DNA from: Candidatus Latescibacteria bacterium 4484_181 | GTDB taxonomy: Bacteria > Latescibacterota > MVCY01 | Direction of reading: 5' to 3' | Length of the DNA stretch: 19,272 nt | Assembly: GCA_002049985.1 (NCBI GenBank) | Contig: MVCY01000057.1 | Coordinates: 1-19,272, forward strand | Part shown: positions 23 to 19,003 of the stretch, one piece after another | How positions within the stretch are numbered: position 1 is the stretch's first letter | Layout of the letters: each line of letters starts with the position of its first letter | Notes under the pieces: generated by a model | The model's database searches: none | What the model saw: the letters and a program-made list of their open reading frames with translations, nothing else | Told to the model about the DNA's origin: nothing | Translations under genes and position numbers: made by a program

Positions 23-1218
23 CTAACCTCTTTTCAATAGATTAAGAAACTCCTCTGCTGTCTTCCAAATATCGCCCGCACCAAAAGTGATTACCAAATC
101 TCCTGGCCGGGTAATCTGGAGCAGATACCCTGCAATTTCCGCTTTTTCGCGTATATAAGTAACAGCTGGATGACCACGTTTTCTGGCAGCGGCGGCTACG
201 AGTTCGCCGCTTACCTCAGGAATGGGAGGCTCCCTGGCGGGGTAGATATCTGTAACTACTATCACATCGGAGACAGACAGCGCCCGGCCGAAATCTTGGT
301 GGAAATCCCTGGTGCGGCTATAAAGATGTGGCTGCGGCAATCTCAGTAGGATGGTGTGCATAGTCATCTACTATGGTGATGCCTCTGACTGTACCTTTCA
401 CTTCGAATCTCCGGTGTACACCGCTGAATTCCTCCAAGGCCTTTTTAATCTTTTCGAATTTTATCTGTAGTTCCAGCCCTACAGCGGCTGCAGCCAGAGC
501 ATTTTTAATATTGTGAACCCCCGGGACCCGTAACCTGATCCCCCCAAGGTTCTCTCCTCGATAACAGAGGTTAAAGCTTCACGAACTCCAAGAACGCCGA
601 TTTGATCTGAGCCAGGTCTTTGTAGCAGTCCAGGTGGTCGGTCTCTATGTTGGTCACCACTGCCACGGTGGGAATGAGCTGTAGAAAGGAGCGGTCGAAC
701 TCATCGGCTTCGGCCACTAAGAATTCGCTGTTCCCCAGTTTTGCGTTTGTACCCAAACTGCGGATGCGGCCCCCAACAATTATGGTAGGGTCCAGTCCAC
801 CCTGGGTTAAGACGCGCCCTGTCATCCAAGCGGTGGTGGTCTTGCCATGGGTGCCAGCAATACCGATGCCGTACTTCATTCGCATCAGCTCTCCTAACAT
901 CTCGGCGCGCCGGATGATCGGTATCTTTCTCTCCCTGGCCCTTACCAGCTCTGGGTTAGAAGATTTAACCGCTGAGGAGTAAACCACTATATCTGCTCCC
1001 TCAACATTCTCTGGCTTATGACCTTCGGTAACTTTAATATCCAAGGACTCTAAATGCTCGGTGATAGACGTTTTCTTAAGGTCAGAGCCAGTCACTCGAT
1101 GCCCAAGGTTGTGAAGCACCTCAGCGATTCCACTCATTCCGATGCCGCCAATACCCACAAAATGAATATTCCTGATCCGCTTCAGCATCGGTTTTTTGTC
1201 TGAAGGAGTTCTCTGCAT
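23..1218 (-). pseudogene. murC: UDP-N-acetylmuramate--L-alanine ligase MurC, disrupted. N-terminal fragment 574..1218, internal out-of-frame fragment about 321..570, C-terminal fragment 26..367
   Basis: The N-terminal ORF has GIGGIGMSG, the GTHGKTTT P-loop and the TNIETDHLD motif, and ends at TAA 573..571 right after ...AFLEFVKL. The next frame reads ...VPGVHNIKNALAAAAVGLEL...RRFEVKG...ITIVDDYAHHPTEI and then hits a stop at 320..318. The third frame continues QPHLYSRTRDF...DIYPAREPPIPEVSG...ITFGAGDI to the stop at 25..23. Compared with E. coli and B. subtilis MurC, about 55-60 residues are missing between FLxxL and PGxHN, and about 18 between DDYAHHPTEI and QPHxYSRT. Confidence 0.8.
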
Positions 1219-2463: not shown

Positions 2464-3324
2464 TTATGAACGGCAGCGGTAATCCATAGCCACCGTTCCG
2501 ATAAAACCCCATTCTTCCCCTATTATGGAGTAGATAAAGTCGGTGTGGGGGGCAGGCAAGAAGAGGAATTTCTGCCTGCTGTGACCCAGTCCCAATCCCC
2601 GCAGACCCCCGCTCCCCAGCGCTACAAGCGATTGATACGTTTGGTAATTTATACCTTGAAGATTTTCTGCTGGATGCAAAAAGGCCTTCAGTCTGGCCAA
2701 TCTGTAGCCTACCTGAGATATAGAAAGATAGATAACGGGAACCGCTGCCAATACAAGACCTCCTAAATGGAGAAGCTTTATTCCGGCCAAGAAGAACATA
2801 GCCGTGACTACCGTCATAATGGCCACAGCGGTACCTAAAGCCGGCTCCAAGATAATCAAACCCACGGCCATAAGGAGAATCAATAGATGGGGTAGGAACC
2901 CCCAGACAAAACTCTTTATTCGATCCTGTCGCCTCGCCAGTGAATCAGCCATATAGATGATCAATGCGACTTTCATAAATTCCGAGGGTTGAAAATTGAA
3001 CCTGCCAATGTGAATCCAGCGGCAGACCTTTTGAGGCTGACCTGTAAACTTCGGCATTAACACCAGCACCAAGAGAAGAAATCCCAACAGCAGAAGAGAT
3101 ATTGCCGCTGTGCCAGAAAGCTTGCTGTAGTCAGTAAGCGAGGCCAGAATCATCACCGATGTCCCCAGTAGAACTATAAATAGATGCTTCTTCAGAAAGA
3201 AACTGCTGTCTTGGTACTTCACCTCCGAGATCACCGAACTGGAGCTGTAAACCATCACCACCCCTATTCCCACCAGTACTATAGTGACGGCTAATAGTGT
3301 GAGGTCAACGGAATTCTCCTTCAC
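2464..3324 (-). CDS. ftsW: FtsW (SEDS-family lipid II flippase/polymerase), C-terminally truncated at 286 aa
   Basis: Multi-TM protein with the SEDS motif ...PAPHTDFIYSIIGEEWGFIG, but the ORF stops about 10 residues later (DYRCRS*). The last two TM helices and the conserved PTKG..TLPF(I/L)SYGGSS block are absent. Only 79 nt separate the stop from the murG start, so the missing ~80 codons are not present in any frame. GTG start at 3324 is preceded by the Shine-Dalgarno-like run GGGGGAG. Confidence 0.75.
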   Translation of the reverse strand: MKENSVDLTLLAVTIVLVGIGVVMVYSSSSVISEVKYQDSSFFLKKHLFIVLLGTSVMILASLTDYSKLSGTAAISLLLLGFLLLVLVLMPKFTGQPQKVCRWIHIGRFNFQPSEFMKVALIIYMADSLARRQDRIKSFVWGFLPHLLILLMAVGLIILEPALGTAVAIMTVVTAMFFLAGIKLLHLGGLVLAAVPVIYLSISQVGYRLARLKAFLHPAENLQGINYQTYQSLVALGSGGLRGLGLGHSRQKFLFLPAPHTDFIYSIIGEEWGFIGTVAMDYRCRS

Positions 3325-3364
3325 TTTCTCCCCCTTCCAGGCATGGAAGAAAACCCCGCCGCTT

Positions 3365-4532: not shown

Positions 4533-5792
4533 TCACCGGTACTTGCCACAGTCTATATTTTCCATAATCTCTTCCATTCTCAGCCTCCGGGAACCTTTGA
4601 TCAAAATCACATCTCCCTCTCTCAAAAACTGGGAAAGCCACTCCGAAACTTCCTGGTTATCTTGGAAGTGCCTGGTCTTTCCGGTCATCCCCAGACTATC
4701 TGCCTTATGGGACGCCAGCTTCGACAATTCTCCCACGGTCAACAGATAGTCAATACTGCTTTCTGCCACATACTGGCCAATCTGTTCGTGAGCCTGTGGG
4801 CCGTGCTCTCCCAGTTCTAACATATCTCCCAACACAGCAATTCGTCGCCCTCACAGCAATTCGTCGCCCTTGAGGTTTAACTTCCAGAGAAATAAGCAAT
4901 TGCAGTGCAGCTTTTGTCGAATCAGGGTTGGCATTATAGGTGTCATTGATGAATCTGACACCGCCTTTGTCCAGCATCTGGCATCTGAGGGCCGGGGGCC
5001 GAACCAGCAGAGGACTTCTGCCTGGAGATCCGTCCTGGCCTTGATTCCAAACCCTACAAATCTTCCCTTAACTTCACTACTTATGGCCTGCAGGTATGGG
5101 TCGTCCATATTGAGCACCACAGGGCCTGAGTTGTTCAGATATCTTATCAGCTCTGCCTTGGACTGCGCTATCTGCTGGATGGTGCCGAAACCCTCAAGGT
5201 GAGCCGGGCCGATGTTAGTAATAAGACCCGTCTCAGGGGCAGCTAACTCTGCCAGTCGTCCTATTTCCCCCGGGGCACTTGCCCCTAACTCTACCACCCC
5301 AAACTCATGTTGAGGAGAAAGCCGTAAGAGCGTGAGGGGAAGACCAATGTGGTTGTTAAGATTACCCTCCGTCTTAAGTACCCGGAACCGGGTGCCCAGA
5401 ATCTCCGCAGTCATATCCTTAGTGGTAGTTTTGCCATTTGTCCCTGTAATAGCAACAAAGGGGATAGGGAATCTTCTCCTATAGGAGGCTGCCAGTCTTT
5501 GTAGAGCCAGCAAGGGATCATCCACCCTGATCAGCAATCCATCACTTTCTGCCAGCTTCGGATAATCTCGCCGGACAATGGCTGCACTGGCCCCTTTCTT
5601 GAGTGCCTGGGGCACAAACTGGTGCCCATCGAATCTTTCCCCTTTGAGGGCAAAGAATACCTGACCCCTCTGGAGTGTTCGGGAGTCTATGGAAACGCCT
5701 TGCGGTTTCCGGCTCAGAGAGGATGGAACAGAATTCCCTTCTGCCTGACCACCAACATCAACAATAATCTCTTCTATCGAAAGTCCCTTCAT
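4533..5792 (-). pseudogene. murF: UDP-MurNAc-pentapeptide synthetase MurF, split over three reading frames (about 5009..5792, about 4870..4977, 4536..4832)
   Basis: Frame 1 has the GTNGKTTT P-loop and reads through ...VGFGIKARTDLQAEVL. Frame 2 reads LDKGGVRFINDTYNANPDSTKAALQLL...GRRIAV. Frame 3 reads LGDMLELG...VILIKGSRR to the stop at 4535..4533. The 2-to-3 shift is caused by a perfect 19-bp tandem duplication. The 1-to-2 junction also lacks about 70 residues compared with E. coli MurF. Confidence 0.8.
4833..4870. repeat. Perfect 19-bp tandem duplication (cacagcaattcgtcgccct x2) inside murF
   Basis: Copy one is 4833..4851 and copy two is 4852..4870, identical. Removing one copy restores the MurF reading frame (...GRRIAVLGDMLELGEHG...). 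Confidence 0.9.
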
Positions 5793-7277: not shown

Positions 7278-9245
7278 TTACTGTAAACCGTTTTCTGCCT
7301 CAATTAAGCAGACTGTGCCGGCTTTGACCTTAACTCCTGCCGGGGGGATTTGTCTTCGTACAACACCTGTGCCGACAATCTTCACCTTTATTCTCTGGCG
7401 GTGGAGGAGATCTACTGCTTCCCTGAGGCTCATCCCGGTCACTCTGGGCATGAGATGACCCCCATCACCATGGTCTGCATAAGCCCGTGATTGATTTCTA
7501 GTTTGCATTTCTAAGGGGGAGGAAATGAGAGAATCGGTGCGGACTGCAAGTGTTGCCGACTTTCCCCTTATCGGGCAGTCATTTAAACTGAGGATGCGGC
7601 TGATGATTCTCTTAAAAGTGGGGGCAGCTACCTGTCCGGCCCAGTGATTTTTTTGCGGTTCATCAATGCTCACCAAGCAAAGCAGCTGAGGCTCCTCGGC
7701 TGGTAGAAATCCTACAAAGGAACAGATTACCTTTTGAGGGTCGTATCCCCGGCCATTCTGTCGGCTTTTCTGCGCAGTGCCTGTTTTACCAGCTATGGAG
7801 AAGCCTTCTATCTTGGCCTCAACTCCGGTGCCCGACTCTACCACATCGCACAGAATTTCGGTAACTGTCCTAGCGGTTTTCTCTGAAACCACCTTTCGTA
7901 CCACCTCAGGAGATTGTTCCTTTATGAGCTTACCGTCTTTGCTGCTAATAGCCTTAAGGACATAGGGTTTCATCAAATATCCCCCGTTGGCAATAGCGCA
8001 GTAGGCGGTGGCGAGCTGAAGAGGGGTGGCGGATATCTCCTGCCCTATAGCTATTGTAGCCAGCGACCTCTTAGACCAAGAAGACGGGTGGTGCACAATT
8101 CCCTTTGCCTCACCTGGCAGTCCGATCCCGGTTCTGGTACCAAAGCCAAAGGCTCGGATGTAGTGGTAGAATCGCTTTTCACCGACCGCCTGAGCTATCT
8201 TTATCGCTCCGATATTGCTGGAGTGTTTAATCACATCCTTAAGGGTGAGCCATCCATAGCTGTGCCAGTCATGGATAGTCCCGCCGGCCACTTTCATCTT
8301 GCCGTTTTCACAGAAGATAAGGTCTGTGGGGTTCCTCAACCCCTCCTCCAAAACAGCTGAAATAGCAACCACTTTAAAGATAGAGCCGGGTTCGAAACAG
8401 TCCCTAATCGCTCTGTTCTTCCTGTTCCCTGGATTACAGGAAGCAGGATGATTAGGATCGTAAGAGGGAACGGAGGCCATTGCTAGAACTTCACCAGTCT
8501 TAGGGTTCATAATGAGAGCTGTTGCCGCCTTTGCGTCAAAACGGCGGACAGCGGCTTCTAACTCCTCTTCGGCGATGGCCTGGTATCTGGAGTCTATTGT
8601 CAGGACAACATTAAGGCCGTCGCGGGCTCCTTTTGGGCTATTCCCAAAGATAGAGAGCTTTCTTCCCCAAGCATCGACTCCCGAGACCGCCCATCCGTTA
8701 GTGCTTCGTAAGTACTTGTCAAAAGCGAATTCTACCCCTTCAATCCCCCGATTGTCGACATCGGTGCCCCCTATGAGTTGTCCTGCCACAGAACCCAGAG
8801 GATAGTTTCGCTTCGCCTCTTCTATCTCTCTTATTTCTGTCAGATTCAGAGAGTCGAGCCTTCTTGCTATCTTCCAGTCCAGCTTTCTGGCTAACCAGAC
8901 AAACGATCCCTTATGCTTTAGCCGTCTGAGAAACAGACTCTCGGGTTTCTCCGTGAGAGTGGAAAGACAAGCAGCTACTTTAGCCGGATGTTCTATCTCC
9001 ATCGGATTGGCTGCTAAAGAACGGGTAGAAATGTCGACGGCCAGACTGACACCATTTCGGTCCAGGATATTGCCCCGCTTGCCTCGCAGACTGATTCTCT
9101 GCTCACTCTGCCTTTTGCTCTTCCGCAAATAGGTCTTGCCGTTGAGCAATTGAATGTGGATCAGACGATTTGTTAAAAATAGCCAAACAATAACGATAAT
9201 GAGCCCTACGAGATAAAGCTTAGCTACATAAACTCGTTCCTTCAT
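7278..9245 (-). CDS. ftsI: FtsI-type class B penicillin-binding protein with a C-terminal PASTA domain (655 aa)
   Basis: N-terminal TM helix, a dimerisation domain, the transpeptidase motifs SIFK (SxxK), SSN and KTGT, and a C-terminal PASTA-like ~65-aa module. Confidence 0.9.
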   Translation of the reverse strand: MKERVYVAKLYLVGLIIVIVWLFLTNRLIHIQLLNGKTYLRKSKRQSEQRISLRGKRGNILDRNGVSLAVDISTRSLAANPMEIEHPAKVAACLSTLTEKPESLFLRRLKHKGSFVWLARKLDWKIARRLDSLNLTEIREIEEAKRNYPLGSVAGQLIGGTDVDNRGIEGVEFAFDKYLRSTNGWAVSGVDAWGRKLSIFGNSPKGARDGLNVVLTIDSRYQAIAEEELEAAVRRFDAKAATALIMNPKTGEVLAMASVPSYDPNHPASCNPGNRKNRAIRDCFEPGSIFKVVAISAVLEEGLRNPTDLIFCENGKMKVAGGTIHDWHSYGWLTLKDVIKHSSNIGAIKIAQAVGEKRFYHYIRAFGFGTRTGIGLPGEAKGIVHHPSSWSKRSLATIAIGQEISATPLQLATAYCAIANGGYLMKPYVLKAISSKDGKLIKEQSPEVVRKVVSEKTARTVTEILCDVVESGTGVEAKIEGFSIAGKTGTAQKSRQNGRGYDPQKVICSFVGFLPAEEPQLLCLVSIDEPQKNHWAGQVAAPTFKRIISRILSLNDCPIRGKSATLAVRTDSLISSPLEMQTRNQSRAYADHGDGGHLMPRVTGMSLREAVDLLHRQRIKVKIVGTGVVRRQIPPAGVKVKAGTVCLIEAENGLQ

Positions 9246-9529: not shown

Positions 9530-10302
9530 TTCGAATCCGCTGTCTTCTCTGCTACTCTCAGTTTAGCACTTCTTGCCCGCCGGTTGGCCTTTTTCTCCTC
9601 TTCACTGGGTAAGATTGGCCTTTTGGCAATCAACTTCAGTATCTTTTTCCCCCCGCATACACAAGTCGGAAGTCGAGGAGGACAGATACAGCCTTTAGAG
9701 TACTGAATGAATAACGATTTAATTGTGCGATCCTCCAAGGAGTGATAAGAAATAATACAAAGCCTTCCTCCGGCCTTCAGAAGGTTGATGCACTGTTCAA
9801 CAGAAGGCCTCAGGATTTCGAGTTCCAGCTCCTCTTCCGGATAGGTATTAACCACCTGCCAGGCCGTCTTTTGGGCCTGGGGATTCATCCTCATATCCAG
9901 CGGACCGCGGAACCTGTAGCTGAAACCACGCCTGGGAGAGTCAAGCTGATGGGAAGAGACTCCCAAATCGAGTAGTATCCCGTCTACAGCTTCAATGCCT
10001 TGCTGTTGCAAGATTGCCGGTAAGTTTTGGAATCCCGACAGATGAAAGCTGACTTTTTCGCCGAAGAGAGAGAGTCTCCTCTTGGCTGCCTGGATTGCCT
10101 CCGGGTCCTGGTCTATGGCGATCAGCCTTCCCCTCTCGCCTAAGCCGGAGAGAACCTGGTAAGCGTGCCCGCCCCCTCCCACCGTGCCATCGACATATAT
10201 CCCGTCCGGATTGGTGAGAAGATATTCCACCGTCTGCCTCAGAAGCACCGGAAAGTGAAAATCCTGTTGGGCAGTCATAGTTTCACACTTGGAACTCCTC
10301 AC
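9526..10302 (-). CDS. rsmH: 16S rRNA (cytosine1402-N4)-methyltransferase RsmH/MraW, abnormally short; the likely true start is ATG 10278 (the track ORF begins at GTG 10302)
   Basis: The SAM-binding motifs (DGTVGGGGHA, ILLDLGVSSHQLD) and the C-terminal GGRLCIISYHSLEDR and RARSAKLRV are present. About 55-60 residues between ...NTYPEEEL and ELEILRP..., which in other RsmH proteins include the HPATRTFQA(L/I)RI block, are missing in-frame. ATG 10278 lies 4 nt after the mraZ stop. Confidence 0.8.
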   Translation of the reverse strand: MRSSKCETMTAQQDFHFPVLLRQTVEYLLTNPDGIYVDGTVGGGGHAYQVLSGLGERGRLIAIDQDPEAIQAAKRRLSLFGEKVSFHLSGFQNLPAILQQQGIEAVDGILLDLGVSSHQLDSPRRGFSYRFRGPLDMRMNPQAQKTAWQVVNTYPEEELELEILRPSVEQCINLLKAGGRLCIISYHSLEDRTIKSLFIQYSKGCICPPRLPTCVCGGKKILKLIAKRPILPSEEEKKANRRARSAKLRVAEKTADSK

Positions 10303-10880: not shown

Positions 10881-11073
10881 GATTTCCTTCTCGGAGTGCC
10901 TTCAGTTTTGCCAAAAAGTGCTGAGATGCATTCTCTGAAGACTCTGGAGATTAAACATCCGTCTCCCGAGCTAAGCCTCGAGGACCTCTCCTATTAGAGG
11001 GTAATGGGGAGAACAACCCGAAGAACAAGTATCCAGAGAAAGCTGTTTTGGACAGAATGGGAAATATTTTTGC

Positions 11074-11102
11074 TTGACATTTCAAGAGAAGGATGTTATA
11101 CT
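11074..11102 (+). promoter_or_regulatory. Sigma-70-type promoter for the stomatin-like gene
   Basis: TTGACA (11074..11079), a 17-nt spacer, then TATACT (11097..11102). This implies a ~135-nt 5' leader before ATG 11247. Confidence 0.5.
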
Positions 11103-11246
11103 ATTTGTCAACAATCACTGAACTTCAGCTTATTTTCTGGCGAACTGACAGTAGCAGGGCAGAGAAGGCGAAACGACATAGATCAACACGGGGATCCAAA
11201 AGAAAATCCCTGGGCATCGAAGTGCATCAAAAGGGAGGTAATTGAG

Positions 11247-12020
11247 ATGGCAATTATGTGGATGTTTCTTCTATTTATCGGTATTATGCTCCTGAGCAGT
11301 GCCATCAGGGTCTTACGGGAATACGAGCGTGGGGTGGTCTTCAGACTGGGCCGATTGGTGGGGGCCAAAGGGCCGGGTTTGATTCTTCTTATTCCCATGA
11401 TCGACCGCATGACGAAAGTGAGCCTGAGGACAGTCACTATGGATATTCCCCCTCAGGATGTGATCACCAAGGACAATGTCTCCATTAAGGTTAATGCCGT
11501 GCTGTATTTCCGAGTAATAGAGGCAGAGAAAGCCGTGGTTGAGGTGGAAGATTATCTCTATGCCACCTCCCAGCTAGCACAGACAACCCTGCGCAGCGTG
11601 TTAGGAGAGGTAGAGCTGGACGAGTTACTCTCTGAAAGAGAGAAAATCAATGTGCGTCTGCAGGGTATCATAGACCAGCAGACAGACCCCTGGGGAATTA
11701 AAGTTTCCATCGTAGAGGTGAAACATGTGGATTTGCCTCAGGATATGCAGCGGGCAATAGCCAGACAGGCCGAGGCAGAACGGGAGCGCAGAGCGAAGAT
11801 CATCCACGCCGAGGGGGAACTGCAGGCGGCCTCAAAGCTCCTTGAAGCCTCTCAGTGTATGGCTAGGGAGCCCATAAGCTTGCAATTGAGATTTTTGCAA
11901 ACCCTAACCGAGGTGGCCTCAGAGAACAATTCCACCACCATCTTCCCTGTCCCCATAGACCTACTCACTCCCTTTATGAAACAAGGGGAAGGGAGGAGAA
12001 GACCTTCAGAGGAGAAATAA
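11247..12020 (+). CDS. Stomatin/prohibitin-family (SPFH, band 7) membrane protein, 257 aa
   Basis: N-terminal TM helix followed by an SPFH core ([12 protein letters not shown]..., TKDNV...V...YFRV, ...[26 protein letters not shown], and the coiled coil [13 protein letters not shown]). Collinear with archaeal and bacterial stomatins. RBS AAGGGAGG lies 7 nt before ATG 11247; the track ORF from 11004 carries an unsupported N-terminal extension. Confidence 0.85.
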
Positions 12021-13306: not shown

Positions 13307-14176
13307 GGATTGAATGCCAAGAAAAGAGAAAGCAGTTAATCCTCAAGCAATTTGTCTATCTTGCTCTTTATTCACGGATCCACTTTGAAAGTAGTCTTTT
13401 GATTGTCTGAGACCACTGTTCTTTTCAAAAATAGGTATAGAAAACTCCTTCTTTAAGGTCTCACTCAGCCGAGAGAATAGCTGATGTAAGGTTTTGGAAT
13501 GAATAGCCCTCCTACTGAGCCGGTTGTAGAAGATCTAGATTCTCTCCAGAAGACGAGAAGAATACGCAGATGGCGCAGGCTATTCTCAAAACGACCAGAG
13601 AGCTGTATATCTTGTTTCGTTCGCCTTTTTATCGCCACTTGCGGTCAGATCAAATTTTCGCGAGAGCGTGATCTTCGGTTTTCGTTGCTGAGCTACGGCT
13701 GGCTTTATCCTCGGAATCGGCCGCACTGCCCACTTGCCACGGCGGGGTTTAATCGCTTGAAATCAACGCTAAGGAAACTGAATGTTTGCTCCTATGTGAG
13801 TCTTAGCATGTGGTCTTTTCCCGGTTCAGCCTAATATCAACCTCATTCAACTCACCAAGAGTGTCTGTCTGCCGTTTTTGCCGGCCAAGCAATTTTCGAA
13901 AATCCCTACACGGATTGCCAGTCAGGCAGCCCGGGAGAACCTCACTCTCAGGCGATCACACATTGGGACATAAACCTCGCGGCTCATGCCACCTATCGCC
14001 CGACCGCTGGTAGTATTCCCACCGCGAATGGAGAATAGTTCCAGCTGGCACACCAGAAATGAAAAGGGAAATATACTAACTTGCTGACTATTCGAGAAAC
14101 ACATTCTGTTGTGGTCTCAGTATCTTTGCAGCAAGAAGCGGCTTTGTGTCCTTCTGGGGGCGGATTAAAGTTTCCC

Positions 14177-14205
14177 TTGACAAAACTTGATGTTTGTTGT
14201 ATAAT
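14177..14205 (+). promoter_or_regulatory. Perfect-consensus sigma-70 promoter upstream of map
   Basis: TTGACA (14177..14182), an exact 17-nt spacer, then TATAAT (14200..14205). GGAG sits 10 nt before the GTG start at 14241. Confidence 0.55.
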
Positions 14206-14240
14206 GACTTTTCCTAGCTTTACCGCGGAGCCCAATCAAT

Positions 14241-14999
14241 GTGTTTATTTTGAAGTTCTTAGGTGTGACACCGCAATATGATTTCCTTGCAACCTTGAGA
14301 AATCTGATACAGCCGGGGATAACTACCAAAGAGCTGGACCAAATAGCAGAGGACCTGATATTGAAGAAAGGCGCTGTCCCTGCCTTTAAGGGATACATGG
14401 GTTATCCGGCAGCTCTTTGCACCTCGGTCAACGAAGAGGTGATTCACGGAGTCCCAGGGCCTCGCCAGCTCAAACCGGGGGACATAGTGAGCTTGGACTT
14501 AGGGGTGAAGCTTGGTGGTTACTATGGTGATGCCACCATCACAGTGCCGGTGGGAGAGGTGAGCAAAGAGGCCGAAAGGCTGCTTCGGGTAACAGAAATG
14601 GCCCTGTATGAAGGGATAAAAATGGCCCGGGTCGGCAATCGACTTTACGACATATCCTATGCCATTCAATCCCTCGTAGAGTCCAATGGCTTCTCTGTAG
14701 TGAGAGATTTTGTGGGACACGGAATCGGTAAGAATTTGCACGAAGAACCCCAGATACCTAATTTCGGACGTCCAGGTCACGGCCCGCGACTCAAAGAGGG
14801 AATGGTGCTGGCGTTGGAACCTATGGTCAATGAGGGGGGATGGCAAGTGAGAATTCTGCCAGATGGATGGACAGTCGTTACTGCTGACGGTAAGCTGTCT
14901 GCACATTTTGAACATACCATAGCTGTCACTGACACTGACCCAGAGATATTGAGTCTCCCATCCTCATCAGGGGAAGGCCAGAAAATTCTGAGGAGCTGA
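14241..14999 (+). CDS. map: Methionine aminopeptidase type I (252 aa) with an atypical or shortened N-terminus
   Basis: The full pita-bread core is present ([35 protein letters not shown] metal ligands, [28 protein letters not shown]). The N-terminal region ([29 protein letters not shown]) lacks the usual ~12-residue EKMRxAGR(L/I)xAE segment between TPE and the KPG turn. GTG start at 14241; an in-frame alternative GTG lies at 14265. Confidence 0.85.
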
Positions 15000-15032: not shown

Positions 15033-15932
15033 CAACATAACATAATAGCCACTGCCTCGGTAGGGGCAGCAATCGGTTTGACCGAGGTGATAAGTCACCT
15101 TAAGGGCACTATTCAGGTTATAGGCACCCCCGCTGAAGAGAGCGGTTGCGGGAAGAAGATCCTGGTAGAGAAAGGGATATTCAGCGGGGTGGACGCTGCA
15201 ATGATGGTTCACCCTTCCAATCGCACCTTGGTGGCACGGGGTTCCCTGGCTTCCCAACTGGTGGAGGTGAAATTTTACGGCAAGGCTGCTCACGCTGCTG
15301 CTTATCCAGAGAATGGCATCAATGCCTTAGACGGAGTCATCGAGACCTTTAATAACATCAACGCCCTTCGACAGCACCTGCCGAGTGATGTCCGCATCCA
15401 CGGTATTATCACGCACGGGGGAACAAGAACCAATATTGTGCCCGACTTCGCTGCCGCCCGCTTCCAGGTGAGGACCGCTGACGACGAATACCTTGATCAA
15501 TTGTTACAGAAAGTGGAAAACTGTGCTCGAGCGGCAGCTCTGGCCACAGGAGCCACCGTAGAATTCGTACTGAGTAACAGTCTTTACCAGGCTATGAGAC
15601 CCAACCGTGCCCTGGCCGAACTATTCGCCGCCAATCTTCGCCACCTTGGTGAGAAATTAGACGAACCACCACAGACCGGAACGATGGGGTCCACCGATAT
15701 GGGGAATGTGAGCCAGGCAGTACCAGCTATTCACCCATATATTGCTATCTGTCCCAAAGAGGTAGTGGCACATTCACCACAATTCGCTGAGGCTGCCATT
15801 TCTGACAGGGCGGATAGAGCGTTGATAACCGCTGCTAAGGCTTTGGCGATGACTGCTGTAGACCTGTTGAGCAATGCCGCTGTGATGAGTAGAGTGCAGC
15901 AGGAATTCAAATCGCACCATCAGAAATATTGA
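15033..15932 (+). pseudogene. M20-family amidohydrolase/peptidase (M20D-like) lacking its N-terminal ~100 residues
   Basis: The open frame begins right after the TAG at 15030..15032 and reads ...IATASVGAAIGL...LKGTIQVIGTPAEESGCG (the M20 GTPAEE motif), then the dimerisation and C-terminal domains to the stop at 15932. The N-terminal metal-binding region is absent. No ATG or GTG lies between 15033 and the TTG at 15078. Confidence 0.7.
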
Positions 15933-16023
15933 CGAGATATTAGTGGGCTCAACTCCCCATTTGCCAGTCACAAGTCAACAAGAGTCAAAACTAGTCGGCT
16001 TAGCGCCGGAGACTCGGTCAGCA

Positions 16024-16938
16024 GTGAAAATAGTAACCTTAGGAACAGGGGGGGCCATCCCTACCCCGGCCCGAAGTCTACCTGCAACCGCCTTGCAGAG
16101 AGAGGCAGAGATATTCCTCTTTGACTGCGGAGAAGGCACTCAGCTGCAGTTCCTAAAAGCAGATTTGAGTCCAGGAAAATTAAGGGCCGTCTTCATATCC
16201 CATCTGCACGGAGACCACATTCTGGGACTTCCAGGGCTGCTTATGACCCTGGCCCATCTGTCGCGAAAGGCTCCTCTCTCGTTGTTTGGACCGCCCGGGG
16301 TATCAGACTACATCCGCTTGACCTGTAGATGTCTTCAATTCAGTCCTGGATATGAGCTCATAGTCAAAGAATCAAGCGGAGGGCGGGTTTACAGTGGTCC
16401 TGACTACTGGATCGATGCAGTGCCTCTTGATCACACCGTGTTCACATTAGCCTATGTCTTTGAGGAAAAGGAGCGTCCCGGGAGGTTTCTCCTGGAACGG
16501 GCCCGACAGCTTGGTGTGCCTGAGGGGCCTTTGTACGGCAGGCTTCAGACCGGGACGGATGTCACCCTCAGCAACGGCAGAGTAATCCGGGCAACAGAGG
16601 TACTGGGAAAACCCAGAAGGGGAAGGAAGGTCGTCTACGCAGTTGATACCCGTCCCTGCCAACAGGTGAAAGAAATCTCCACCGGTGCAGATCTGCTGAT
16701 CCACGACGGGATGTTCTCAGACCAACTACGGGAGGAAGCCCGTCTGAAAGGACACTCCACCGCTGTTGAGGCGGCAGAGGTGGCCCAGAATGCCAAAGTT
16801 GAAAGACTTCTGCTCACTCACATAAGTCCCCGTTACCGCAATCAGGACGCACTTCTGCAGAAGGAGGCAATGACCATCTTCCCCCACACCACCGTCGCCA
16901 AAGACCTGATGCAGTTCAAAATCCAAGTGCACAAATAG
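16024..16938 (+). CDS. rnz: Ribonuclease Z / metallo-beta-lactamase-fold tRNA 3'-processing endonuclease (about 304 aa from GTG 16024; the track ORF starts at 15943)
   Basis: VKIVTLGTGGAIPT N-terminus, the HxHxDH motif (ISHLHGDHILGLPGLL), and C-terminal His/Asp motifs (LIHDGMF, LLLTHISPRY). GGAG lies about 12 nt before GTG 16024. Confidence 0.8.
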   Translation: MKIVTLGTGGAIPTPARSLPATALQREAEIFLFDCGEGTQLQFLKADLSPGKLRAVFISHLHGDHILGLPGLLMTLAHLSRKAPLSLFGPPGVSDYIRLTCRCLQFSPGYELIVKESSGGRVYSGPDYWIDAVPLDHTVFTLAYVFEEKERPGRFLLERARQLGVPEGPLYGRLQTGTDVTLSNGRVIRATEVLGKPRRGRKVVYAVDTRPCQQVKEISTGADLLIHDGMFSDQLREEARLKGHSTAVEAAEVAQNAKVERLLLTHISPRYRNQDALLQKEAMTIFPHTTVAKDLMQFKIQVHK

Positions 16939-17302: not shown

Positions 17303-19003
17303 ATGCCTTACAAACCTGAGAATCCGATGGTTGTCCAGAGTGACCGGACTATTCTGTTAGAGGTAGACAATCCTCGTTACGAGGATGCCAGGGACCGGTT
17401 AGCAAGATTTGCTGAACTGGAGAAAAGTCCCGAACACATGCACACCTACCGTATAACTCCGCTTTCGCTGTGGAATGCGGCTGCCTCTGGGCTGAGCGCC
17501 TCTGAGGTGTTGGATACCCTGGGCCGTTTCAGTAAGTACGAGATCCCTCAGAATATTGAGGCTGAGGTGATGGAGTATATCTCTCGCTACGGGAAGTTAC
17601 AACTTTGTCGATCAGGAGAAAAGCTGGTCCTGAGCTCGACGGACGCCCACATCATCAAAGAGATCTGGCACAACAGAGAGGTGCGACCGTATCTGAAAGA
17701 ACTTGTCGACGGGAAGGCCATTCTGGTGGAACCCCGCTGCAGAGGCTACCTGAAACAAGAGCTCATCAAATTTGGTCTGCCGGTGGAGGATTTGGCGGGC
17801 TACGTCGAGGGCGCTCCTCTCACCTTACTGATACGTGAGAAAACGCGAAGTGGACGGAAGTTCCAGTTGCGACCATATCAGCAGCAAGCAGTTGAGGTTT
17901 TCCACGCCAGCGGAGGTGCAACTGGGGGTTCAGGGGTAATCGTGCTTCCCTGTGGGGCTGGTAAAACGATTGTAGGAATGGCTGCAATAGAGAAGCTCCA
18001 GACCCAAACCCTCGTCTTGGTGACCAATATCACTGCCCTCCGACAATGGGAGGAAGAACTGTTGGATAAAACCACTCTTTCTGCCGACCAAATAGGCGAA
18101 TACTCCGGAGAGAAGAAGGAGGTACGTCCTGTCACCATTGCCACTTATAACATCCTCACCTACCGAAGGAGCAGAGAGGAAGATTTTCCCCATTTTGAGC
18201 TGTTTAACCGGCAGAACTGGGGGTTGGTGATTTACGATGAGGTCCATCTGCTGCCAGCGCCGGTTTTTCGTATTACTGCCGAGATTCAAGCCAGAAGACG
18301 GCTGGGGCTGACCGCCACCCTGGTGCGCGAAGACGGAAGGGAGACAGATGTGTTCAGCCTCATCGGACCCAAGAAATATGATGTGCCCTGGAAAATACTG
18401 GAAAAGCAGGGCTGGATCGCGCCTGCCGAGTGCTGGGAAATAAGAGTGGAGCTTCCTCCACAATTGAGGCTCCGGTATGCAGCGACAAACCTGCGGAAAA
18501 AGTTCCGGGTCGCATCGGAAAACCCCGCCAAGGACGAATTGGTGATAAGGCTGGTGCACCAGCACAGAGGTGCCCAGATCCTGGTGATTGGACAATACAT
18601 CGCCCAACTGGAAAACCTTGCCCGAAAACTGAACGCGCCGATCATCACTGGCAAAGTGGGGAGTTGGGAAAGGATCAAGCTTTACAACATGTTCAAACGA
18701 GGCGAGATTAAACTGTTAGTGGTGTCCAAAGTGGCCAACTTCGCCGTCGACCTGCCGGATGCTAATGTAGCCATCCAGGTCTCCGGCACGTTCGGCTCCA
18801 GACAAGAGGAGGCTCAAAGGTTGGGCAGGATACTCCGTCCCAAGACAGATGGAAGTACAGCTCGCTTCTACTCCCTGGTTACTCGAAATACTACAGAACA
18901 GGAGTTCGCCGCAAACAGACAACTGTTCCTTACTGAACAGGGCTATAAGTACACGATTCAAGACGCGACAGTCTTCTTCAGCCTAAGAAGCCGGAGGCGA
19001 TAG
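17303..19003 (+). CDS. XPB/ERCC3 (Rad25)-like SF2 DNA helicase, 566 aa
   Basis: N-terminal damage-recognition-like domain, then helicase motifs: Q/I (LRPYQQQAV...LPCGAGKT), II (VIYDEVH), III with the XPB-specific RED motif (GLTATLVREDGRE), and VI (QRLGRILR). RBS GAGAGG lies 4 nt before ATG 17303. Confidence 0.85.
   Translation: MPYKPENPMVVQSDRTILLEVDNPRYEDARDRLARFAELEKSPEHMHTYRITPLSLWNAAASGLSASEVLDTLGRFSKYEIPQNIEAEVMEYISRYGKLQLCRSGEKLVLSSTDAHIIKEIWHNREVRPYLKELVDGKAILVEPRCRGYLKQELIKFGLPVEDLAGYVEGAPLTLLIREKTRSGRKFQLRPYQQQAVEVFHASGGATGGSGVIVLPCGAGKTIVGMAAIEKLQTQTLVLVTNITALRQWEEELLDKTTLSADQIGEYSGEKKEVRPVTIATYNILTYRRSREEDFPHFELFNRQNWGLVIYDEVHLLPAPVFRITAEIQARRRLGLTATLVREDGRETDVFSLIGPKKYDVPWKILEKQGWIAPAECWEIRVELPPQLRLRYAATNLRKKFRVASENPAKDELVIRLVHQHRGAQILVIGQYIAQLENLARKLNAPIITGKVGSWERIKLYNMFKRGEIKLLVVSKVANFAVDLPDANVAIQVSGTFGSRQEEAQRLGRILRPKTDGSTARFYSLVTRNTTEQEFAANRQLFLTEQGYKYTIQDATVFFSLRSRRR

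Follow-up and report, generated by a model that had tools for sequence, protein, structure and literature searches.

Local errors in metagenome assemblies have been described in detail by Chen et al. (2020, Genome Res.; PMC7111523), who reported that errors at scaffold joins include duplicated flanking sequence and that uncurated errors carry broken genes into databases. In practice, local errors of the assembler IDBA-UD are corrected with ra2.py (PMC7111523). The locus analyzed in this study resembles these IDBA-UD errors in several respects: a duplicated flank at a putative contig join is accompanied by missing sequence at others, genes are broken and have been propagated to databases, and the sites concerned are those at which strain variants break the graph. 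It differs in that the copies described by Chen et al. are separated by Ns, whereas the copies observed here abut and no runs of Ns are present in the deposited scaffold. Moreover, lack of read support is the defining criterion in the published work, whereas the present case was judged from sequence comparison.

The window, i.e., the complete stretch of 19,272 nucleotides analyzed, represents an entire scaffold (MVCY01000057.1) of the metagenome-assembled genome (MAG) Candidatus Latescibacteria bacterium 4484_181. This MAG, published as ex4484_181, originates from Guaymas Basin sediment and comprises 0.995 Mb on 102 scaffolds, with 54% completeness as deduced from marker genes (PMC5569505). 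It was binned from scaffolds computed by IDBA-UD, an assembler including a scaffolding step, with the parameters --mink 75 --maxk 105 --step 10, from reads of 2x125 bp and inserts of 360-420 bp (PMC5569505). The dive-4484 reads are deposited under BioProject PRJNA362212.

The locus in question lies on the minus strand, starts with an ATG at position 5792 that overlaps the murE stop codon, and ends at approximately position 4533. It is located between murE and mraY in a cluster with the gene order mraZ-rsmH-ftsL-ftsI-murE-murF-mraY-ftsW-murG-murC, which the window shares with all related loci, and thus occupies the position of murF in the dcw cluster. Inside this gene, the 19-mer CACAGCAATTCGTCGCCCT occurs twice, head-to-tail (coordinates of all features are compiled in Table 1). 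Tandem Repeats Finder reported a single array at 4833-4870 with a period of 19, 2.0 copies, 100% matches and no indels, in agreement with the perfect tandem duplication described in the initial annotation of this sequence. The duplicated unit corresponds to nucleotides 1077-1095 of the murF gene. A third copy was not found in the window, even with up to 3 mismatches permitted, and 200 dinucleotide-preserving shuffles yielded no match to the 19-mer. At the junction of the copies an in-frame TGA arises (…KGDELL, followed by the stop), and frame translation thus confirmed that the duplication shifts the murF frame, as had been recognized initially. Likewise, removal of one copy brings back the local reading …KPQGRRIAVLGDMLELG…, as had been predicted, but murF remains frameshifted by a second lesion.

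This second lesion, overlooked in the initial annotation, is a deletion of 154 bp located 152 bp upstream (in murF orientation) of the duplication. Nucleotides 790-943 of the gene, corresponding to codons 264-315, are absent. In a three-frame translation, approximately 50 codons containing the conserved …INDTYNANPDS… motif were located in a different frame than both ends of MurF, and therefore two frame-changing lesions have to be present. Alignment to intact relatives confirmed both of them and showed that nucleotides 1-789 of the gene are intact. Translation of the 152 nucleotides between the two lesions proceeds out of frame until the TGA is reached. Hence, only residues 1-263 of the deduced protein OPX31818.1 are genuine MurF, while its final 50 residues, up to the TGA at the copy junction, are out-of-frame. 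The two remnants of the gene share the same frame because the net change of -154+19 = -135 nucleotides equals -45 codons. When both lesions are mended by taking out one copy and inserting the 154 bp, the resulting murF is 100% identical to the gene of a related locus, L011 (sample SAMN06251742).

Table 1. Features of the murF locus and further lesions in the window. The assignment of segments to contigs is putative.
Feature	Position in window	Strand	Remarks
Copy 1 of CACAGCAATTCGTCGCCCT	4833..4851		Presumed last 19 bases of the shared left-hand contig; end = SNP-1
Copy 2 of CACAGCAATTCGTCGCCCT	4852..4870		Presumed start of the retained part of the next contig; overlap incompletely trimmed
Putative tail of the 237-bp bubble contig, 152 bp	4852..5003		End 5003 = 4899+104 (k-1)
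Four-site variant cluster	4871 T, 4882 T, 4891 A, 4899 A		Minority haplotype common to the window and L011 only
154-bp deletion junction, murF	5003..5004		Microhomology 0 bp; lost part includes the GLHNIYN motif region
murF 5' remnant	4851..5792	-	313-aa ORF = OPX31818.1, 'hypothetical protein B1H40_03420'
murF 3' remnant	4533..4835	-	End of Mur_ligase_C domain; same frame as the 5' part
53-bp deletion junction, murC	332..333		From alignment to relatives
155-bp deletion junction, murC	577..578		From alignment to relatives
157-bp deletion junction, ftsW	2485..2486		Left end one base before a population SNP
195-bp deletion junction, rsmH	9824..9825		In-frame, 65 codons
61-bp deletion junction, 5' end of map (methionine aminopeptidase)	14283..14284		From alignment to relatives
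260-bp deletion junction, M20 peptidase gene	15034..15035		Left end one base before a population SNP
2-bp deletion junction, XPB-like helicase gene	18971..18972		Last codons frameshifted

In order to classify the encoded products, they were compared with TIGR01143, the family model of MurF (UDP-N-acetylmuramoyl-tripeptide--D-alanyl-D-alanine ligase), for which the curated cut-off is 288.6 bits. The intact MurF of L011 reached 434.4 bits, whereas the fragments deduced from the window scored 266.2 bits (313-aa) and 73.5 bits (100-aa) and hence fail the whole-protein cut-off. All three Mur ligase domains are complete in the intact relative; no ORF of the window contains the three together. The middle domain covers profile positions 1-155 of 200 only, and the C-terminal Mur ligase domain (profile positions 44-127 of 127) is located on a separate ORF. 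Accordingly, the locus can be assigned to murF by descent, although a complete MurF cannot be deduced from its sequence as written. It corresponds to an ordinary dcw-cluster murF, since mending yields the sequence of an intact MurF of 464 aa, and differs from members of the family in being split into parts of 313 and approximately 100 amino acids, in lacking residues 264-315 and in scoring below the cut-off.

Related loci were retrieved by exact-protein look-up with the MraY, MurE and metallo-beta-lactamase (MBL)-fold proteins of the window, which yielded 18 loci from ENA, NCBI, JGI and Logan assemblies, all 99.9-100% identical to the window. Comparison with related genomes, as advised in the initial annotation, did not recover the two-copy state at all: the duplication pattern was absent from all 18 loci, including independent assemblies of the same population, and a single copy of the 19-mer together with a 464-aa murF was present in every one of the loci L001-L014 covering the site (approximately ten independent assemblies). 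The single-copy junction reads GTCGCCCT[T/C]GAGGTTTAAC. Furthermore, rsmH (315-aa), ftsW (369-aa), murC (467-aa or 457-aa), map (260-aa) and the M20 peptidase gene (396-aa) are intact in the relatives covering the respective region. The same genes are intact in a sister lineage sharing 96% DNA identity, in which 17 contigs encode an identical intact MurF; the three sister-lineage loci that were read possess one copy of the 19-mer and an intact murF. Among members of the respective protein clusters (NCBI and JGI), the truncated products occur on one contig only and intact MurF on many. The lesions are already contained in the public GenBank record, and the possibility of planted or synthetic lesions was therefore dismissed. 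Exact scans of genome, metagenome and viral contig collections for the 38-mer CACAGCAATTCGTCGCCCTCACAGCAATTCGTCGCCCT, and of genome and metagenome collections for a single-copy 40-mer (whose haplotype occurs only in L011), returned no matches; these collections evidently do not include the contigs concerned.

The two lesions in murF are not the only ones. In total, nine private lesions, namely the duplication and eight deletions of 53, 155, 157, 154, 195, 61, 260 and 2 bp, were identified within 19.3 kb, affecting murC (twice), ftsW, murF (twice), rsmH, map, the M20 peptidase gene and the helicase gene. By contrast, ftsI, murE, mraY and murG of the same cluster are 100% intact. The list of differences was derived from a global alignment in which NODE_504 of ERZ2433807 served as the reference, and the same lesions were called against every reference used. 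Substitutions relative to the reference amount to five aligned mismatches plus site 4871, i.e., approximately 6 SNPs, corresponding to a divergence of approximately 0.03%. The deletion junctions are blunt, with a microhomology of 0-2 bp, representing chance level. None of the deletions exceeds 260 bp, and all are hence shorter than the library insert size.

Several observations concerning the neighboring genes were made in the course of the comparison. In the window, mraY adjoins ftsW without an intervening murD (spacer at window 3325-3364, L001 11089-11130 and L019 12563-12604), and ddl is absent between murC/murB and ftsQ. All related contigs as well as the sister lineage show this layout without murD and ddl, which is therefore regarded as the native arrangement in these Latescibacteria. 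Between the gene for an SDF-family transporter and map, a region of 934 bp (13307-14240) is located in which no gene is called in any relative. Neither Rfam nor tRNA scans returned a match in the window, including this region. Moreover, it represents the part most diverged from the sister lineage (9.1% compared to 3-8% in neighboring genes) and therefore gives no indication of a conserved RNA; the region is possibly a decayed gene. The plus-strand gene at 15943-16938 encodes a 331-aa MBL-fold protein with matches to Pfam PF23023 (Anti-Pycsar Apyc1) and Lactamase_B, which may be an RNase Z-like or MBL housekeeping enzyme. It is located upstream of the XPB/ERCC3-like helicase gene at 17303-19003 (plus strand; Helicase_C_3, ResIII, ERCC3_RAD25_C). 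In relatives (L015, 11385-15236) a second gene follows the helicase gene, the 592-aa product of which matches Helicase_C_3 and, faintly, Tfb2; this arrangement suggests a two-gene XPB-type module. The window stops before this second gene. Finally, the Band_7/SPFH gene at 11004-12020 (plus strand) encodes 257 aa in most relatives and 338 or 364 aa in some (L007, L019), and the long N-terminal extension of the ORF in the window is probably untranslated.

The positions of the lesions were evaluated relative to the variation within the population. Among the related loci, 24 variable sites were recorded in 20.3 kb. Four of these form a cluster at 4871, 4882, 4891 and 4899, where the other loci of the same population carry C, C, G and G. 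Site 4871 directly abuts copy 2, and the 19-mer consists of exactly the 19 bases preceding this site. The minority haplotype could not be established as the allele of the sister lineage, since it matched at 2 of the 4 sites only. SNPs are also present at window positions 2486 and 15035; at these sites and at 4871 (reference positions 8965, 22062 and 11488, respectively), the sister lineage differs as well, and within the main population two of the three SNPs occur in L011 only. These shared variants hint at co-occurrence of the two lineages, recombination between them, or a chimeric consensus in both L011 and the window.

In a de Bruijn graph of k=105, the published maximum, left ends of lesions are predicted either one base before a SNP or 104 bases (maxk - 1) past the last SNP of a cluster. 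Left ends at SNP-1 were observed for three lesions (the duplication, the 157-bp deletion and the 260-bp deletion), while the 154-bp deletion starts 104 bases past the last SNP of the cluster (5003 - 4899 = 104). Thus, the left ends of 4 out of 9 lesions are located at positions dictated by the graph, compared to an expectation of 0.04; four matches were not obtained in any of 2,000,000 random placements (Poisson P ~1e-7). The last SNP was taken as reference because it fixes the end of the bubble contig, and the offset measured from it yields k=105, whereas matches to k=113 and k=122 stem from earlier SNPs of the same cluster. The fit is confined to left ends. No rule could be derived for the right-hand offsets (85 bp trimmed, 154 bp lost), and the occurrence of 85 among the k values used may be a coincidence. 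The remaining 5 of the 9 lesions have no SNP at their borders in a catalogue built from only about ten other assemblies, and variant sites of the sister lineage added no breakpoint coincidences beyond the three already known. An origin of the unit length as k-1 of a k=20 graph (the default mink of IDBA-UD) was rejected, as the study used k = 75-105.

Based on the private nature of the duplication, the eight other private indels in a nearly SNP-free background and the location of junctions at graph positions, it is highly likely that the duplication arose as a local error of the IDBA-UD scaffolding and not as a mutation. An assembly artefact, the outcome which the initial annotation had itself set against its reading, thus appears to be the best-supported explanation from the comparisons available. 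Path assembly in IDBA probably joins contigs by estimated and not by verified overlap. The following course of events is proposed. Two haplotypes differing at the four murF sites (window 4871-4899) would have been present in the sample. In the k=105 graph, the contig shared by both would end one base before the first SNP, and the minority haplotype would form a 237-bp 'bubble' contig (unitig) extending from 104 bases before the first SNP to 104 bases past the last one. These contigs would then have been chained according to distances estimated from read pairs, in place of their true overlaps of 104 bp. At the left join, 85 bp instead of 104 bp may have been trimmed, and the last 19 bp of the overlap (104-85) would consequently have been retained twice; at the right join, just past the end of the bubble contig at 5003, 154 bp would have been lost. 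The restriction of the fit to left ends could be explained if the scaffolder retains the complete left contig and shortens the following one at its start by the estimated distance, and deletions shorter than the insert size would be expected of joins spanned by read pairs. The seven other deletions are of the same artefact class as the duplication and would have been produced by the same scaffolding process.

A real tandem duplication that arose recently by replication slippage or template switching in a genotype of the dive-4484 sediment and was assembled faithfully, with murF being a pseudogene or a minority or defective variant, is considered improbable; replication slippage had been favored in the initial annotation. 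The perfect and exactly adjacent copies are those expected of a very young duplication, and the rare T,T,A,A background was recovered independently in L011, so that heterogeneity of the population at this spot is real. The locus also shares with natural slippage pseudogenes the perfect head-to-tail arrangement, a length that is not a multiple of three and a premature stop. It departs from them in being private within its population, in having graph-set boundaries and in being accompanied by eight other private indels. A recent slippage origin is thus unsupported for a duplication that occurs in no other assembly than one IDBA-UD scaffold with junctions at k=105 graph positions: the boundary of the unit lies exactly, to the base, at a graph node defined by a SNP, and the neighboring lesion lies at SNP+104. 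Moreover, a viable lineage would not be expected to combine eight additional private indels in essential genes with a near absence of substitutions, and the single-copy ancestral sequence has no flanking direct repeat and no repeat at the borders of the unit.

It is very improbable that all nine lesions are real, reflecting either a sub-population that dismantles its cell-wall and division cluster or abundant defective or relic DNA; the match to k=105 would in this case be coincidental. Even less credence is given to a true decay of the dcw cluster, with murF, murC, ftsW, rsmH and map inactivated and peptidoglycan synthesis being lost. Several cell-wall and division genes are indeed struck together, and marker genes indicate a completeness of only 54% for the MAG. 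However, the inclusion of map, the M20 peptidase and the helicase among the affected genes argues against pathway specificity, as do the intact ftsI, murE, mraY and murG against decay of the cluster. In addition, a divergence of approximately 0.03% from intact relatives is too low for nine indels under relaxed selection, and the junction positions follow the k of the assembler. A functional switch, either by a phase-variable copy number, as suggested initially, or by programmed ribosomal frameshifting yielding full-length MurF, has a negligible probability: the net change of -135 nucleotides is a multiple of 3 and leaves the N- and C-terminal parts in one frame, but the 19-mer is unique, occurs exactly once in every relative with no other copy-number state and is not part of a simple-sequence tract, the 152 nucleotides separating the lesions are in a different frame that ends in a TGA, the central domain lacks 52 residues, and in all relatives MurF is encoded by a single continuous frame of 464 aa, no conserved two-frame organization being present in homologous loci. 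An essential housekeeping ligase is no plausible contingency locus.

The scaffolding error, as the preferred explanation, has consequences mainly for databases, in which the 'hypothetical proteins' OPX31816.1 and OPX31818.1 stand where MurF should be. Errors of this kind can lower completeness estimates and could be misread as pseudogenization, loss of peptidoglycan synthesis or phase variation. The practical worth of the locus is that it provides a checkable example of uncurated IDBA-UD scaffolds seeding databases with broken genes. Moreover, it provides a diagnostic that does not depend on reads, since junctions at SNP-1 or SNP+(k-1) for the k of the assembler can flag artefacts. For the biology of the organism the duplication is unimportant: it very probably possesses a normal murF encoding an intact MurF of 464 aa.
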